A stretch of 64,000 bases of DNA. Origin: an uncultured Eubacteriales bacterium. Lineage in GTDB: Bacteria; Acidobacteriota; Aminicenantia; Aminicenantales; Aminicenantaceae. The stretch lies in the NCBI GenBank assembly GCA_964514305.1, contig CAZEQD010000001.1, positions 27,181-91,180 of the forward strand, in the 5' to 3' direction. Positions within the stretch are counted from its first letter, which is position 1, and each line of letters starts with the position of its first letter. The notes below the pieces were generated by a model that did not search any database, was not told the origin of the DNA, and saw nothing but the letters and a program-made list of their open reading frames with translations. A program made the position numbers and the translations under genes. Below, one piece after another: positions 1,283-52,307 of this stretch.

Positions 1283-1339
1283 TTCTTTTTTCAAAATTAA
1301 CACAAGAAAAGTTGAAAAGCAACCTGTGGTTTTAACTAG

Positions 1340-1408
1340 GTGAAGAGTTAACGTTGAGAAGTAAAGGATTTAAAGTATAAAGTTTAAAGTTGAAAGTAAA
1401 GAAATGAA
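1340..1408. repeat. Phased 7-nt periodic repeat array (gtgaaga gttaacg ... gtttaaa gttgaaa gtaaaga), about 10 heptads
   Basis: Constant 7-nt phase of GT-initiated, A-rich heptamers. Same motif family as the array at 10166-10280. Confidence 0.6.
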
Positions 1409-1425
1409 ACGAATACAACGTGTAG

Positions 1426-1466
1426 GGCCCGCTGTCCTCAGCGGGCCGCTTTAATTATTTTTTATG
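1426..1466 (+). terminator. Rho-independent terminator-like hairpin (9-bp GC stem ggcccgctg/cagcgggcc, 4-nt loop) followed by a T-rich tract
   Basis: Perfect 9-bp GC-rich stem at 1426-1434/1439-1447, then gctttaattattttttatgtttattttttt. There is no upstream + strand CDS, so it may terminate a small transcript coming from the heptad region. Confidence 0.5.
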
Positions 1467-5720: not shown

Positions 5721-6332
5721 TTGTTAAGCCAATTTGCAGGAAAGGAACTTCAAGAACTGAGAATGGGAAAAAAGACACCAGGCGAAAAAGTGGATACCTA
5801 TGTGCTTTTGGAAAAAATAAAACAAGGAGATAGAGAAGCTTTTATGACACTTACGGCTCTATATCAGAGGAAGGTCTTTTTATTAGCCTTTTCTTTTTTT
5901 CATAACAGAGAAGATGCCTTGGATGTTGTTCAAGAAACATTCCTTCGTTTATATCAGAAACTGGATATGTTTAAGCTAGGAAAAAATTTTCAAAATTGGC
6001 TGCTCCAGATCACTAAAAATATATGTATTGATTATTACAGGAGAAATTATGGAAAAAAGAACATATATGAGAAAAACAAGGAGTTAGAAGTATTGCCTTT
6101 GGTGAACAATGATAATGCTTTTACTTCTTTAGATTTGAAATCTATCTTTTCCCGCTGTTTGCAGAAGTTAACAGCCAAACAGCGGATGATTTTTGTCATG
6201 AAACATTACAATCAATTTAAATATAGGGAGATTGCCCAAATTTTAAATATTTCCTTAGGGACTGTAAAATCACTTCATTTCAAAGCTGTGCAAAACATGA
6301 AAAAGCAGATCAGTCCTTATTTGGAGAGATGA
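5721..6332 (+). CDS. RNA polymerase sigma-70 factor, ECF subfamily
   Basis: Region-2-like segment ETFLRLYQKL, region-4 HTH IAQILNISLGTVKSLHFKA. The real start may be the internal Met at 5763. Confidence 0.85.
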   Translation: MLSQFAGKELQELRMGKKTPGEKVDTYVLLEKIKQGDREAFMTLTALYQRKVFLLAFSFFHNREDALDVVQETFLRLYQKLDMFKLGKNFQNWLLQITKNICIDYYRRNYGKKNIYEKNKELEVLPLVNNDNAFTSLDLKSIFSRCLQKLTAKQRMIFVMKHYNQFKYREIAQILNISLGTVKSLHFKAVQNMKKQISPYLER

Positions 6333-7141: not shown

Positions 7142-7988
7142 AGTGAAAAAAATAATAATTATCAATTTTATAATTTTGTTCCTAGCCTCATTCTCTCTTC
7201 AGGTTCATAGCCAGATCCGGCCAGATGAAAAGATTTTCCAGGATGCTAAGATTCTTATTTTTGATGAAAAATGGGAAAGTGCCCAGAAAAAGCTGGAAGA
7301 GTTAATTAGTAAATATCCTCAGAGTCCCTGGAGGGCTCAAGCCGTCTTTTATAAAGCTAAATGCTTGGAAGAGCAGGAAGGAAAAGAGGAGGGGGCTTTA
7401 GCCGCATATAAGGAGTTTCTTAAGCTTGAGTCTGATCAGCAGAGCCTGAGAGAAGATGCAGAAGTTTCTATTATTGACTTGGCCTCCGAGCTTTATCAAA
7501 AAGGGAAAAAGTCTTATCTAGGAGAAATCGAAAAGAGGTTAGCCAGCTCCAATAAAGTAGTAAGATATTATGCTGCTTTTGAATTAAGTTATGCAAAAGA
7601 CAAGAAAGTAGCGGTTGAGGGGATTCCGGTTCTAAAGGAGATTTTAGCTCAGGAGAAGGATCCTAGACTCAGAGATAGAGCCAAGATCGCTTTGCTCCGC
7701 ATTAATCCCGACACTCTTCAAGACATTGAAGAGGAAAGCTATCGAAATCAGGCTAGGATATTAAAAATCAGAGTTTACGAAAAGCCGCAAAAAAAACTGA
7801 AGCTTTCTTTAAATATCCCCTGGGCACTGGCTGATCTAGCTCTGGGAGCAATTCCTGCAGAAGAAAAGGCTTTGATGTGCCAAAAAGGCTATGATTTGGA
7901 TAAGATTATCCACGAATTAACCAGAATAAAAGGAAATATTATCGAAATTGAAGGTGAAGAGATAATTATTAAAATGTGGATAGATTAA
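7131..7988 (+). CDS. Secreted hypothetical protein with TPR-like/HEAT-like repeats
   Basis: Signal peptide (IIIINFIILFLASFSLQVHSQ), helical repeat composition, PRLRDRAKIAL HEAT-like motif. Coupled to the anti-sigma gene. Confidence 0.5.
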   Translation: MRFKVKKIIIINFIILFLASFSLQVHSQIRPDEKIFQDAKILIFDEKWESAQKKLEELISKYPQSPWRAQAVFYKAKCLEEQEGKEEGALAAYKEFLKLESDQQSLREDAEVSIIDLASELYQKGKKSYLGEIEKRLASSNKVVRYYAAFELSYAKDKKVAVEGIPVLKEILAQEKDPRLRDRAKIALLRINPDTLQDIEEESYRNQARILKIRVYEKPQKKLKLSLNIPWALADLALGAIPAEEKALMCQKGYDLDKIIHELTRIKGNIIEIEGEEIIIKMWID

Positions 7989-8000
7989 AGGAGGTAATAA

Positions 8001-8387
8001 ATGAAAAAAGCCGCATTTTTGATTGTCATCATTTTATCAGTAACTCTTATTTTAGCTGCTGTCCTTTTAGCTGAGAGAAATGTCGATCTTCAAACCATTA
8101 AAAAGGCTGTCAAGTCCAATCCTGCTTATGAAAAGGGCCGCGAAGTGAAGTGGATTAAGCTTTTGATTACTGATAATAAAACAAAAAAAGATAAAGTTAG
8201 AATTACTTTGCCTCTTTCTTTAGTAGAAACTTTTCTAAAATGTGCTAAAGATAAACCCCTGAGAATTCATAACGAGGAATGTGATCTTGATCTCAAAGCC
8301 CTTTTGGCTGAACTCAAGAAACTGGGGCCGACAGCCCTGATTGAAGTCTATGAAGAGGATGAGACAGTAAAAATCTGGTTGGAATAG
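8001..8387 (+). CDS. Hypothetical membrane-anchored/secreted small protein
   Basis: RBS aaaggaggtaataaATG. N-terminal hydrophobic segment. No recognisable domain. Confidence 0.4.
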   Translation: MKKAAFLIVIILSVTLILAAVLLAERNVDLQTIKKAVKSNPAYEKGREVKWIKLLITDNKTKKDKVRITLPLSLVETFLKCAKDKPLRIHNEECDLDLKALLAELKKLGPTALIEVYEEDETVKIWLE

Positions 8388-8411
8388 GGAAAAAAATTTA
8401 GCTGGAAATAA

Positions 8412-8446
8412 GGGGAAATGGAGGAATTTTCCATTTCCCCTTTTTA
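8412..8446 (+). terminator. Rho-independent terminator (11-bp stem ggggaaatgga/tccatttcccc + TTTTT)
   Basis: Perfect 11-bp stem, 7-nt loop, immediately followed by tttttat. Ends the ECF-sigma operon. Confidence 0.75.
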
Positions 8447-8548: not shown

Positions 8549-8577
8549 TTGACAAATTATGTTGTTGCTTGAATAAT
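8549..8577 (+). promoter_or_regulatory. Sigma-70-like promoter (TTGACA-17 bp-AATAAT) upstream of the citrate-module operon
   Basis: TTGACA at 8549-8554, 17-nt spacer, AATAAT at 8572-8577. RBS aagga about 7 nt before ATG 8601. Confidence 0.4.
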
Positions 8578-8600: not shown

Positions 8601-10160
8601 ATGGCTAGGCTTTATGAGTACCAAGGCAAAAAACTTCTCAGGGAAGCTGGCTTGCCCGTACCCAAGGGAGAGGTAGTTTCTTCTGCGTCTGAAGGCCGTA
8701 AAATCGCTGAACAACTTGATAGGCCAGTGGCCTTGAAGATGCAGGTCTGGCTGACTGGTAGAGCTGGTTTTGGGGGCATTCAATTTGCCGAGAAACCTCA
8801 ACAGGCTGAGAAACTGGCTGATAAAATGCTGGACACGAAGATTAAAAATTTTGTGGTTGAAAAGCTTCTGGTGGAAGAAAAGCTGGCTATCAAGGCTGAA
8901 TATTTTGTTGGTTTAATAATTGATGATGCCCAAAAAAAACCTGTTCTTATATTCAGCACGGTAGGAGGCACCGGTCTTGAAGAGGTAATTCGTTCCCAGC
9001 CAGAGAGAGTTGCTTATCTATATGTTGATGTCCGGCGTGGTTTGCAGGAATATGAAGTTCGCAATTTTCTGCTTCAATTAGGAATATCCGCTCGGCTCCT
9101 CCATAAATTGTCTGATTTCATAACGAAATTTTATAAGATGGCCCGCAGATACGATGCCCGCTCAGCTGAGATAAATCCTTTGGTCTTAACTGAAGACGAT
9201 AAAATTTATGCTGCCGACTGCCATATAGTAGTGGATGATTATGCAGTCTATCGCCATCCTGAACTGCAAATAGAAGTGGCCAGAGAATTTGACCGTCCGC
9301 CTACTCTTCTGGAAAAAATTGCTTATTGGGTTGAGGAAAAAGATCATCGAGGCACTTTTTATTTTTTTCAGATGGTTGAGGATGTTTCTGGTAAAGAAAA
9401 TTATATAGGTTTTCATGGAGCTGGCGGCGGTGGTTCGATGATGTCTATGGATGCTGTCCTCAGCCGAGGCTTTAAACTGGCTAATTATTGTGATACGAGC
9501 GGTAATCCAGCTGCCAGTAAGGTCTATCGAGCCGCTAAAATTATCCTTTCCCAACCTAATATCAAAGGCTATTTTGCCTCTGGTTCTGGCGTTGCCAGCC
9601 AGGAACAATTTCATTCAGCCCGGGGATTGGTGAAAGCTTTCCATGAGGAAAAGATTGAAATTCCGGCTGTTATCCGCTTGGGTGGTAACTATGAAGAAAA
9701 GGCCATCGAAATTTTAGGTAATTACCTGCGTCATCTGGCGGCTAAAGTAGAAGGCTACGGCCGAGATGACTCGCCTGAGTTTTGCGCTCAAAGGTTAGAA
9801 GAGTTAATTGAGGAGAATAAGGCTAAAAAGCATAAAGTAAGACCTATAAAGGAGCCAGAGATTTCACCTGCGGCTTACTCTTTTGAGACTTTAACAGGGA
9901 AAGTTTATATCGACCACCAGAAGTGTGCTAGTTGCCAAAGCAAAGGCTGTATTCAAGCATGCAGTGCTCAGATATTAAGACTTAAGGAGGGAAAACCTAT
10001 CCTCTCCATTACTCAAGAAGAAGCCAAAAAAGGCAAATGTACAGAATGTTTAGCCTGTGAAATTTATTGCACTTTTCATGAGAAAGCAGCTCTTTACATC
10101 CATCTTCCTATTTTGGGCCTTAAGGAATACCGTAGTAGAATTATCAAGGATAAGAAATGA
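8601..10160 (+). CDS. Succinyl-CoA synthetase beta-like / ATP-citrate lyase beta-like ATP-grasp subunit (candidate citryl-CoA synthetase large subunit) with C-terminal ferredoxin-like Cys cluster
   Basis: MARLYEYQGKKLLREAGLPVP matches the SucC/AclB N-terminus. ATP-grasp and CoA-ligase domains (GGGSMMSMD, NYCDTSGNPA). Extra C-terminal ~110 aa with C-x2-C-x4-C-x3-C ... C-x2-C-x2-C-x3-C. Confidence 0.8.
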   Translation: MARLYEYQGKKLLREAGLPVPKGEVVSSASEGRKIAEQLDRPVALKMQVWLTGRAGFGGIQFAEKPQQAEKLADKMLDTKIKNFVVEKLLVEEKLAIKAEYFVGLIIDDAQKKPVLIFSTVGGTGLEEVIRSQPERVAYLYVDVRRGLQEYEVRNFLLQLGISARLLHKLSDFITKFYKMARRYDARSAEINPLVLTEDDKIYAADCHIVVDDYAVYRHPELQIEVAREFDRPPTLLEKIAYWVEEKDHRGTFYFFQMVEDVSGKENYIGFHGAGGGGSMMSMDAVLSRGFKLANYCDTSGNPAASKVYRAAKIILSQPNIKGYFASGSGVASQEQFHSARGLVKAFHEEKIEIPAVIRLGGNYEEKAIEILGNYLRHLAAKVEGYGRDDSPEFCAQRLEELIEENKAKKHKVRPIKEPEISPAAYSFETLTGKVYIDHQKCASCQSKGCIQACSAQILRLKEGKPILSITQEEAKKGKCTECLACEIYCTFHEKAALYIHLPILGLKEYRSRIIKDKK

Positions 10161-10165
10161 TTGAA

Positions 10166-10280
10166 GTTTAAGGTTTAAAGTGAAAAGTGAAAAGTAAGAA
10201 GTGAGAAGTGAAGAGTGGGAAGTTAGGAGTTGAAGGTTTAAGGTTAATTTCTTTAAACTTTCAACTTTAAACTTTAAACC
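10166..10280. repeat. Intergenic array of phased 7-nt repeats (12 heptads: gtttaag gtttaaa gtgaaaa gtgaaaa gtaagaa gtgagaa gtgaaga gtgggaa gttagga gttgaag gtttaag gttaatt) followed by inverted GTTTAAA heptads
   Basis: Strict 7-nt periodicity over about 84 nt on the + strand. Then tttaaactttcaactttaaactttaaacc, which is the same heptad on the opposite strand. Sits between the beta-like and alpha-like subunit genes. Confidence 0.7.
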
Positions 10281-10294
10281 AATAAGAGGTTTTA

Positions 10295-11191
10295 ATGTCC
10301 ATTCTGGTTAACAAAAAATCAAGAGTTTGTGTGCAGGGAATTACCGGAAGAGAAGGCATGGTCCGAACTAAATTGATGCTTGATTATGGTACTCAAGTAG
10401 TAGCTGGGGTGACTCCAGGGAAGGGAGGAAAAGAAGTTTATGGAGTTCCTGTTTTCGATTCTGTCCAGCAAGCTATGACTAAAGTTGGTCAGCTCGACAT
10501 CAGTGTTATTTTTGTTCCCGCTCCCTTAGTCAAAAACGCAGCCTTAGAGGCAATAGATGCCGGCATTAAACTTCTTGTTCTTATTCCCGACCGAGTGCCT
10601 ATTTATGATGTTCTGGAAATTATAAGTTTTGCCCAAGAGAGAGGAGCTCGATTTGTGGGACCTAATACTCTGGGTCTGATCAGTCCGGGGAAAGCAGTCT
10701 TAGGTATGATAGGAGGTCGAGCCGAAAGAGCCAGAGAATGGTTTCAACCTGGAACGATCGGGGTCAGTTCCCGAAGTGGAGGCATGACTTCAGCAATTTC
10801 CTATTATCTAACTCAGGTAGGCCTCGGTCAGAGTACCATCGTTCATGTGGGCGGGGATGCTGTTTTAGGCCTTTCTCATCCAGAAATTATGGAGCTTTTT
10901 GAAAAAGATGAGCAAACAGAAATGGTCGTTATGTTTGGGGAAATAGGGACAACACAAGAGGAAAGAGTAGCTGATTTAATTAAGGAAGGGAAATTTACTA
11001 AGCCTCTTATTGCCTTTATAGGTGGCAAAGCCGCTAAATCCGGGACAAGATTTTCCCATGCGGGGGCTATTGTTGAAGGTTCTAAAGGCTCCTATGAAAC
11101 TAAAGTCAAGAAATTGAGGGAGGTTGGAGTTCATATTGCTCATTCGATCTCTGATATTCCCAATTTAGCTCTGCGCTTAAAAATATCCTAA
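10295..11191 (+). CDS. Succinyl-CoA synthetase alpha-like / ATP-citrate lyase alpha N-terminal-like CoA-binding subunit (candidate citryl-CoA synthetase small subunit)
   Basis: Collinear match to SucD: ...VQGITGREG..., GVTPGKGG, SRSGGMTS, phosphohistidine loop SHAGAI. RBS aagaggttttaATG. Confidence 0.85.
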   Translation: MSILVNKKSRVCVQGITGREGMVRTKLMLDYGTQVVAGVTPGKGGKEVYGVPVFDSVQQAMTKVGQLDISVIFVPAPLVKNAALEAIDAGIKLLVLIPDRVPIYDVLEIISFAQERGARFVGPNTLGLISPGKAVLGMIGGRAERAREWFQPGTIGVSSRSGGMTSAISYYLTQVGLGQSTIVHVGGDAVLGLSHPEIMELFEKDEQTEMVVMFGEIGTTQEERVADLIKEGKFTKPLIAFIGGKAAKSGTRFSHAGAIVEGSKGSYETKVKKLREVGVHIAHSISDIPNLALRLKIS

Positions 11192-26110: not shown

Positions 26111-26157
26111 AGCTTAAATTTTTCTCTAAGCTAAGAAGGAGGCTCTGTTACTGAATT

Positions 26158-26324
26158 GCCGGTGGGGTCAGACCTTCATAAGTTTCATAACTTTAATTTT
26201 TACAATAACTGTAATAATTTTTGTCCCCTACAAACCGACGAGATATATCAATAGAGAAGCATAATTTATGAAACTTATGAAGGTCTGACCCCGTGTATAT
26301 TACCCCACTTTTCGTTATAGAGCC
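26158..26324. repeat. Dispersed repeat element, copy 1 (perfect 27-bp inverted repeats 26164-26190 / 26266-26292 flanking a ~75-bp core, plus ~35-bp conserved tail)
   Basis: Roughly 90% identical (by eye) to 52115-52307 in the same orientation. Arms ggggtcagaccttcataagtttcataa / ttatgaaacttatgaaggtctgacccc. Confidence 0.85.
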
Positions 26325-52029: not shown

Positions 52030-52114
52030 CTCCCCTTAAATTATTAAATTTTTTTTTAAGATATCTTATTCTAATTTGTTTTTCGTCTGAAAGTCAACCT
52101 TTGTCTGTGAATTC

Positions 52115-52307
52115 CAGGTGGGGTCAGACCTTCATAAGTTTCATAACTTTAATTTTTACAATAATTGTAATAACTTTTGTCCCCTACAGACCGACGAAAT
52201 ATATCAATAGAGAAGCATAATTTATGAAACTTATGAAGGTCTGACCCCGTCTGCTGACTATTATATGTGTATATTACCCACTTTTCGTCAAAGAGCCCCT
52301 TTGTCTT
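52115..52307. repeat. Dispersed repeat element, copy 2 (27-bp perfect inverted repeats 52120-52146 / 52222-52248)
   Basis: Same element as 26158-26324, with an ~18-bp insertion in the tail. Same orientation. Confidence 0.85.

Follow-up and report, generated by a model that had tools for sequence, protein, structure and literature searches.

Genomic context

Within the 64,000-nt stretch of DNA analysed here (the window), a tandem array of 7-nt units takes up the larger part of a 134-nt spacer (10161-10294). The products of the two genes that flank this spacer resemble the beta and alpha subunits of citryl-CoA synthetase (Table 1). The beta-subunit protein is succinyl-CoA-ligase-beta-like and the alpha-subunit protein succinyl-CoA-ligase-alpha-like. 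The next gene encodes a citryl-CoA lyase, with a score above the NCBIfam cut-off, and 3′ of the lyase follow genes for an HD-domain protein, two aconitase/LeuCD-type subunit pairs and an isocitrate/homoisocitrate-type dehydrogenase. Judged by the domain content of the flanking and downstream genes, the term 'citrate-module operon' that the original prediction applied to the region is a fair description, and the spacer length of 135 nt given there is corrected to 134 nt.

A terminator-like hairpin of 15 bp (8410-8442) precedes the promoter-like site upstream of the beta gene, and the two together mark where the operon begins. A 23-nt tandem duplication (2.1 copies, 8369-8442) overlaps this perfect 15-bp hairpin with its T-run; it lies between the operon promoter and the gene of a 128-aa protein that has no Pfam or NCBIfam match. 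The 4Fe-4S dicluster-like domain of the beta subunit (residues ~441-491) is conserved among relatives belonging to several phyla (L001-L013); to our knowledge, canonical succinyl-CoA and citryl-CoA synthetase beta subunits do not carry such a C-terminal domain.

Table 1. Coordinates of the features discussed in the text (positions in the window)
Feature	Position	Strand	Remarks
Second heptad array	1326-1402	+	~11 units, two without GT
Terminator-like hairpin, GC-rich	1426-1447	+	9 pairs, 8 of them G-C; T-run to ~1470
Promoter-like site TTGACA-17-AATAAT	8549-8577	+	11/12 consensus positions; consensus match only
Upstream gene, citryl-CoA-synthetase-like beta subunit	8601-10160	+	519 aa; ATP-grasp, citrate-binding and C-terminal 4Fe-4S dicluster-like domains
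Heptads 1-2 (GTTTAAG GTTTAAA)	10166-10179	+	Inferred ancestral 5′ arm, outer half; complement of 10266-10279
Expansion block, seven GTGARAA-type heptads	10180-10228	+	49 nt; site of the strain polymorphism
Heptads 10-11 and one G (GTTGAAG GTTTAAG G)	10229-10243	+	5′ arm, inner half; 5′ strand of the main stem
Hairpin loop UUAAUUU	10244-10250	+	Predicted fold
3′ arm, four minus-strand heptads	10251-10279	+	TRF, phase reading and fold
Alpha translation-initiation region	10276-10305	+	SD AAGAGG at 10284-10289; AUG at 10295
Downstream gene, citryl-CoA-synthetase-like alpha subunit	10295-11191	+	298 aa; CoA-binding and CoA-ligase domains

Anatomy of the array

Read in 7-nt phase from 10166, the plus strand carries 12 GT-heptads up to 10249: units 1-6 are GTTTAAG GTTTAAA GTGAAAA GTGAAAA GTAAGAA GTGAGAA, and units 7-12 are GTGAAGA GTGGGAA GTTAGGA GTTGAAG GTTTAAG GTTAATT. 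The units are degenerate, nine different ones among the 12, with the general form GTNRRRR. After the 12th GT-heptad the plus strand continues with ACTTTCA ACTTTAA ACTTTAA; on the minus strand four heptads can be read from 10279 to 10252 (GTTTAAA GTTTAAA GTTGAAA GTTTAAA), and a 2-nt gap separates the 12 direct from the four inverted units. By TRF, there is one period-7 array at 10177-10217 and another at 10251-10279; the phase reading and TRF both confirm the predicted arrangement of about 12 phased 7-nt repeats followed by inverted heptads. A scan of the whole 64 kb for phased GT (at least five of six phased GT; 0.25 clusters in mononucleotide shuffles) returned two clusters only, at 1361-1402 and 10159-10256, both on the plus strand.

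When heptads 1-2 are joined to heptads 10-11 and compared with the reverse complement of the 3′ arm, 25 of the 28 positions agree. All three mismatches have G in the 5′ arm against A and would therefore become G.U pairs in the sense RNA, a hint, from three sites only, of constraint at the RNA level. The simplest reading of this layout would be an ancestral palindrome in which a 9-nt loop separates arms of four heptads each (consensus GTTTAAR GTTTAAA GTTGAAR GTTTAAR, loop GTTAATTTC, then the inverse), the 5′ arm of which appears to have been split by a 49-nt block. Within this expansion block (10180-10228), TRF finds a period-14 and a period-21 substructure of the kind that is typical of stepwise duplication. 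The element is bounded by terminal inverted repeats, GTTTAAGGTTTAAAGT and ACTTTAAACTTTAAAC, with 16-nt ends that differ by one mismatch; the flanks (ATTGAA and CAATAA) show no target-site duplication.

A second, partial copy

The related array that the original prediction located at 1340-1408 is real, and shares an exact 19-mer and a 34-nt core with the element in the spacer. It spans 1326-1402, where a phosphoglucomutase gene on the minus strand (start at 1282) and an ABC-transporter gene (start at 1585) diverge. The exact 19-mer, AAAGTTTAAAGTTGAAAGT, is common to the second array and the minus strand of the 10166-10279 element (0.07 matches expected), and 1375-1408 aligns with the minus strand of 10245-10280 with 32/34 identities and one 2-nt gap. 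The aligned 34-nt core of both arrays takes in non-heptad loop sequence; because the common core includes the loop, it suggests dispersal of the element rather than purely local slippage, a point against the explanation that we favour below. The GC-rich hairpin at 1426-1447 lies 24 nt 3′ of the second array and upstream of the promoter-like site of the ABC-transporter gene. It could mark the end of a small RNA or leader that contains the second array; no convincing promoter for such a transcript was found by eye.

Intergenic DNA makes up ~12% of the window and includes ~20 regions of at least 100 nt; both arrays are intergenic, and arrays occur in just two of these regions. The extra 8.4 kb upstream of the window holds no further array, which gives two in ~72 kb in total, one of them a half-copy.

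A palindromic repeat of another kind, 152 nt long, is present at 26143-26294 and 52099-52250. The two copies are 93% identical, both are intergenic, and each has arms of 30-35 nt (GGGGTCAGACCTTCATAAGTTTCATAACTT and its inverse) with 69 nt between them; in this genome the repeat has the appearance of a family of REP or MITE type.

Strain variation and distribution among relatives

The exact alpha-subunit protein is encoded on eight metagenome contigs. In four of these, and in a fifth contig retrieved via the beta-subunit protein, the spacer is identical to that of the window; in a sixth it is identical until the contig ends inside the 3′ arm. Contig L082 breaks inside the repeat. Contig L083 (= L406) has an extra GTGAAAAGTAAGAA in the block, a 14-nt tandem duplication that amounts to two units, so that the block holds nine instead of seven. 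Over 5 kb, L083 differs from the window by eight SNPs and by this duplication as the sole indel, and is otherwise 99.84% identical; judged from the sequences, a two-unit difference of this kind would be typical of slippage. The second array (1326-1402) is invariant in five other contigs. The polymorphism in the block separates strains differing by 0.16% and could make the array usable as a strain marker for an uncultured lineage; the array is also a likely assembly-break point, one contig ending inside it.

A wider comparison drew on 80 retrieved loci encoding relatives of the alpha subunit (860 kb in total), in 36 of which the upstream gene was identifiable. The spacer in these 36 related operons mostly ranges from -20 (overlap) to +62 nt, and a heptad array like that at 10166-10279 is present in none of them; the closest relative (80% amino-acid identity) has a 24-nt spacer without repeat. 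The 860 kb of related loci likewise contain no array of four RAGTNNN units. Short, repeat-free spacers in the relatives argue for a recent, lineage-specific addition, and the element shows no sign of selection and is not conserved in the relatives examined. The original prediction had named two outcomes that would speak against it: ubiquity of the heptad pattern in intergenic DNA, which is not what the window shows, and lack of conservation in related genomes, which is what was found. In a Phycisphaerae relative (L018, ~5940-6000), a short repeat with a period of ~15 (TGTGAAC TGTGCCA) stands directly before the start codon of the alpha homologue.

Predicted RNA fold

Folding of the spacer transcript, which the original prediction had proposed as a check, yields a stem-loop of 18+6 bp on the sense strand. 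The core hairpin of the sense RNA has a predicted free energy of -27.1 kcal/mol (z -5.8), compared with only -14.3 kcal/mol for the antisense RNA, and the DNA folds are weaker still. In the predicted structure the 3′ arm pairs with heptads 9-12: the main stem joins 10226-10243 with 10251-10268 (18 bp, including five G.U pairs), an extension joins 10219-10224 with 10270-10275, and an outer stem of 7 bp joins 10212-10218 with 10299-10305, that is, alpha codons 2-4. Heptads 1-2 can pair with the end of the 3′ arm in an alternative register. The purine-rich ~60 nt at 10150-10211 are predicted to be unpaired, which includes the first 32 nt of the expansion block (10180-10211), while the remainder of the block, 10212-10228 except 10225, is predicted to contribute to the outer stem, to the extension and to the three base pairs with which the main stem starts.

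The stem-loop ends 4 nt upstream of the alpha SD, half of which is predicted to lie inside a 5-bp hairpin (10276-80/10288-92). Unpaired probabilities in the initiation region of the alpha gene are low at 37 and 55 °C, and the structure is still predicted at 55 °C and, in part, at 70 °C. A search of Rfam returned no match at the gathering threshold; in E-value mode it gave generic hairpins far below threshold.

Heptamer arrays in other genomes

Heptameric simple-sequence repeats (SSRs) are over-represented in bacteria according to Mrazek 2007 as quoted by Rehm et al. 2015 (PMC4692102), who on heptamer repeats also quote Mazel 1990. A TRF census of the 860 kb, an unbiased set of DNA from unrelated bacteria, counted 19 period-7 arrays of at least three copies, versus 7 for period 6, 3 for period 8 and 9 for period 9, and agrees with this reported over-representation. 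The element in the spacer shows four features of such SSRs: head-to-tail 7-nt units, a non-coding location, copy-number steps between strains and absence at orthologous sites. Intergenic heptamer repeats are a generic class with published examples (PMC4692102, PMC4679880), to which the element belongs.

Metagenome contigs were scanned with a three-heptad pattern derived from the family of the 10166 array, which occurred at a minimum of 120 loci. Nearly all of the matches listed consist of 3-21 AAAGTNN units, on contigs of 24-64% GC, and 72 of the listed arrays are intergenic by crude ORF calls. Among these matches, the array most commonly sits between two genes of the same direction, its purine-rich strand being the sense strand (27 of the 37 codirectional cases), and the arrays so placed often begin a few bases past the upstream stop codon and finish shortly before the next start codon. 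At least three inverted units within 120 nt occur downstream of 13 of the 121 arrays listed and upstream of two; a terminator-like hairpin follows the array in nine of 113 and precedes it in two. Some of the contigs listed hold three or four arrays, along with other heptad or octad arrays. The stop-to-start placement and the downstream inverted units could reflect a common function, and we count them against our favoured explanation.

The metagenome pattern itself selects tandem heptads, and for this reason controls were run on a viral collection, using reversed and column-permuted heptads matched in composition. The control matches, too, include cases with a direct array, a loop, an inverted array, an SD and an ATG. 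Because control heptads are equally common, the sequence of the heptad is not special, and the architecture recurs with many units. Two viral matches to a control pattern (L387 and L388) have a TTGAAAA-type array, a loop, inverted TTTCCAG/TTTCAAG, AAGGAGG and ATG; their architecture is that of the window element, and their unit is unrelated.

Two candidate generalizations were rejected. An apparent special enrichment of AAAGTTN in the viral collection (54 raw matches, compared with 12 and 8 for the controls) arose from one conserved phage coding sequence, which accounted for ~42 of the 54; de-duplication left ~10-12 distinct matches against the same 12 and 8. An 'AGT anchor', suggested by the AGT/ACT that many published and observed heptamer repeats seemed to have in common, was present in only three of the 19 period-7 arrays of the unbiased set (background 0.16-0.24). 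An initial scan with seven GTNNRRR units let too much through, mainly perfect microsatellites with a variety of sequences, telomere-like GTTTAGG among them. In the seven elements of the class that were usable, hairpin stability shows no consistent sense-strand bias, and a literature search for the exact heptad strings gave unrelated eukaryotic papers only.

Origin and possible function of the element

The reading that we favour, with a probability of about 55%, is that the element is a lineage-specific palindromic repeat expanded by slippage, and that any effect it has would most likely come from a stem-loop in the intercistronic mRNA. As such it looks like an ordinary strain-variable simple-sequence repeat and not like a conserved regulator. 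It would have begun as a small palindrome with four-heptad arms, the same sequence family leaving the second, partial copy at 1375-1408. Replication slippage would then have enlarged a GTGARAA-type block inside the 5′ arm to seven units, and to nine in one strain, repeats of seven bases being those most prone to expand in the intergenic DNA of bacteria. The seven-unit block is probably a neutral by-product, and the element would be a clean, dated case of heptamer growth, in which the arm of a palindrome is split by a slippage block.

Published heptameric SSRs include the cyanobacterial STRR sequences, GGGGAYT in Nostoc and GGGAATC in Xanthomonas (Rehm et al. 2015, PMC4692102). In Nostoc, a heptamer array lies within the pec operon (pecE-pecF), and in Xanthomonas convergent inverted pairs are able to form stem-loops; length and sequence vary among close relatives, and slippage has been proposed as the origin (PMC4692102). 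The present array resembles these repeats in its tandem 7-nt non-coding units within an operon and in its strain-variable length. It differs from them in that the units are A/G-rich (GTNRRRR), do not form G-quadruplexes and are much more degenerate, in that the array is set in the arm of a palindrome, and in that ~72 kb hold two arrays.

How such a repeat might act can be pictured from the predicted fold. Transcribed within the operon mRNA, the 3′ arm and heptads 9-12 would form a stem-loop before the alpha SD, and this stem-loop may uncouple translation of beta and alpha, hide part of the alpha initiation region and serve as a barrier to exonucleases; the net outcome, conceivably, would be a shifted beta:alpha expression ratio.

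Enterobacterial REP elements are intercistronic stem-loops that alter mRNA stability or expression within operons; they are G+C-rich, exist in hundreds of copies and have arms without heptad periodicity or repeat expansion. REP/BIME-type intercistronic palindromes at malE-malF were reportedly described by Newbury, Smith and Higgins in 1987. Like REP, the window element is an imperfect palindrome inside an operon, would form a stem-loop in the transcript and is absent from the orthologous spacers of other lineages; it has no sequence similarity with REP, and ~72 kb contain one full and one partial copy of it. By this analogy, differential mRNA stability or expression within the operon, as proposed for REP, is our favoured functional model.

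The original prediction had offered two functional readings, which fared differently. That of a structured inter-cistronic RNA element is supported computationally by the predicted stem-loop (-27.1 kcal/mol, z -5.8), in which the SD and the first codons are partly paired. Control of subunit stoichiometry would be a possible role. That of a dedicated protein- or RNA-binding array is not upheld: the array is absent from related operons, its copy number varies between near-identical strains, and it falls in a generic repeat class. If the stem-loop shifts the beta:alpha ratio of the citrate-cleaving enzyme, copy-number changes would be a simple tuning knob, which would be of some interest in carbon-fixation physiology. 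For the biology of the operon the element carries little weight as it stands, being a strain-variable repeat in a spacer where the relatives do without one.

Part of the evidence would also suit a dispersed palindrome or miniature mobile element of REP or MITE type that was inserted in the spacer and in which the heptad block is a secondary expansion. The terminal inverted repeats, the partial copy at 1375-1408 with both arm and loop sequence, the insertion-like appearance beside the relatives' spacers and the existence of another palindromic repeat family in the genome (152 nt, two copies) all point in this direction. We nevertheless regard such an origin as rather unlikely, since only two copies occur in ~72 kb, one of them a half-copy, no target-site duplication is visible, and BLAST against plasmids and phages gave no match bar one chance stretch of 29 nt in a chemotaxis gene; the reading also largely overlaps our favoured one of a slippage-expanded palindrome.

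Heptamers close to start codons have been given a post-transcriptional role elsewhere. In marine (Guaymas) Beggiatoaceae, TAACTGA repeats form 169 sets per genome just 5′ of start codons (MacGregor 2015, PMC4679880); they are near-perfect, comprise 2-6 copies and overlap the ribosome-binding site, and binding of S1, Csp or CsrA has been proposed (PMC4679880). The window array is similar in being made of intergenic direct heptamers near a start codon with the forward unit on the sense strand, and dissimilar in that it lies 45 nt from the start codon, leaves the SD separate and is joined by an inverted partner.

By extension, the 12 RGU-N4 units might constitute an RNA operator, an unpaired purine-rich leader through which ribosomal protein S1, a cold-shock protein, CsrA or an oligomeric protein like TRAP or HutP would control alpha translation and, at the second array, act on the nearby terminator. 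The mechanism would be that of MacGregor for heptamers just 5′ of start codons (PMC4679880), and it is in keeping with the predicted single-strandedness of the 5′ two-thirds of the array, with the purine-rich strand being the sense strand here and in the 27 of 37 codirectional cases among the metagenome matches listed, with the strong terminator hairpin 24 nt past the second array, and with the excess, among the matches listed, of terminator-like hairpins after related arrays (9/113) over those before them (2). What makes an RNA operator improbable is that copy number varies between strains and that the array is absent from all relatives, that heptads differ widely across arrays and taxa and control heptads are equally common, and that the searches found neither a candidate protein nor an Rfam match.

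The better-known RNA targets of oligomeric proteins fit in part. HutP recognizes UAG-N4 with a 7-nt period, and TRAP binds (G/U)AG triplets at fixed spacing in leader RNA. A conserved triplet at fixed spacing is found here as well, and the period of 7 agrees with HutP; the triplet, though, is RGU and not the (G/U)AG or UAG of these systems, the copy number is variable, and the 10166 array has no terminator/antiterminator pair.

A stem-loop of -27 kcal/mol followed by U-rich UUUAAACUUUAAAC would also suit a partial intrinsic terminator or polarity element, by which alpha and the downstream genes would be transcribed less than beta. This seems quite improbable, as the stem is rich in A-U and G-U, the tail has four T in eight, and the lyase, aconitase-like and dehydrogenase genes presumably need co-expression; the terminator scan did not flag the stem-loop because no U-run directly follows the stem. 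Equally doubtful is the broader proposition that AAAGTNN arrays, which often have convergent NNACTTT partners and stand between a stop codon and the following start codon in many unrelated contigs, form an undescribed class of cis-element. A common oligomeric protein would bind them, each subunit taking up one heptad, whether on RNA as HutP does or on DNA as omega does, and the two arrays would here co-regulate the alpha subunit and the ABC transporter.

The omega protein (ParB) of pSM19035 binds as one ribbon-helix-helix (RHH) dimer per 7-bp unit to 7-10 contiguous direct and inverted repeats of consensus WATCACW, which overlap plasmid promoters and go with a cognate RHH gene (PMC9499535). 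A double-stranded DNA operator of this type for a heptad-binding protein is very improbable for the present array, which shares with omega operators contiguous, non-palindromic 7-bp units (12 direct, then four inverted) and has its second copy in a divergent promoter region, but whose degenerate GTNRRRR units are unrelated to WATCACW, are interrupted by the 2-nt gap at the direct/inverted junction and overlap or adjoin no promoter-like site at 10160-10294, while the Pfam scan, which covered 25 window ORFs, none of them short, found no ribbon-helix-helix family and the G.U asymmetry of the sense strand favours RNA over DNA. Each of the omega, TRAP/HutP, MITE and terminator readings is weakened because it fails at least one testable defining feature.

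Heptad-periodic hairpins between genes in metagenomes represent a wider pattern that is worth a proper census. Some genomes appear to be rich in composite heptad/octad hairpins, as suggested by a metagenome contig of 58% GC (L258), where nested arrays of GTAATCA, CACAGAG, AAAGTTG and GTGGCGA units (7376-7417 and its flanks, 2934-2961 and 8377-8411) have outer units that recur inverted. On two rumen metagenome contigs (L225 and L298), AAAGTTN arrays lie directly 5′ of a ribosomal protein L32-like gene (MAHPKRRQS...), and a second array of GTAAAAG/GTGAAGA follows past its stop codon. Arrays that mix GTGAAGA with GTGAAAA, both of them units of the expansion block at 10180-10228, recur in many viral contigs, sometimes two per contig (L101, L107, L119, L131, L132, L159, L163, L165, L166, L183, L198 and L201).
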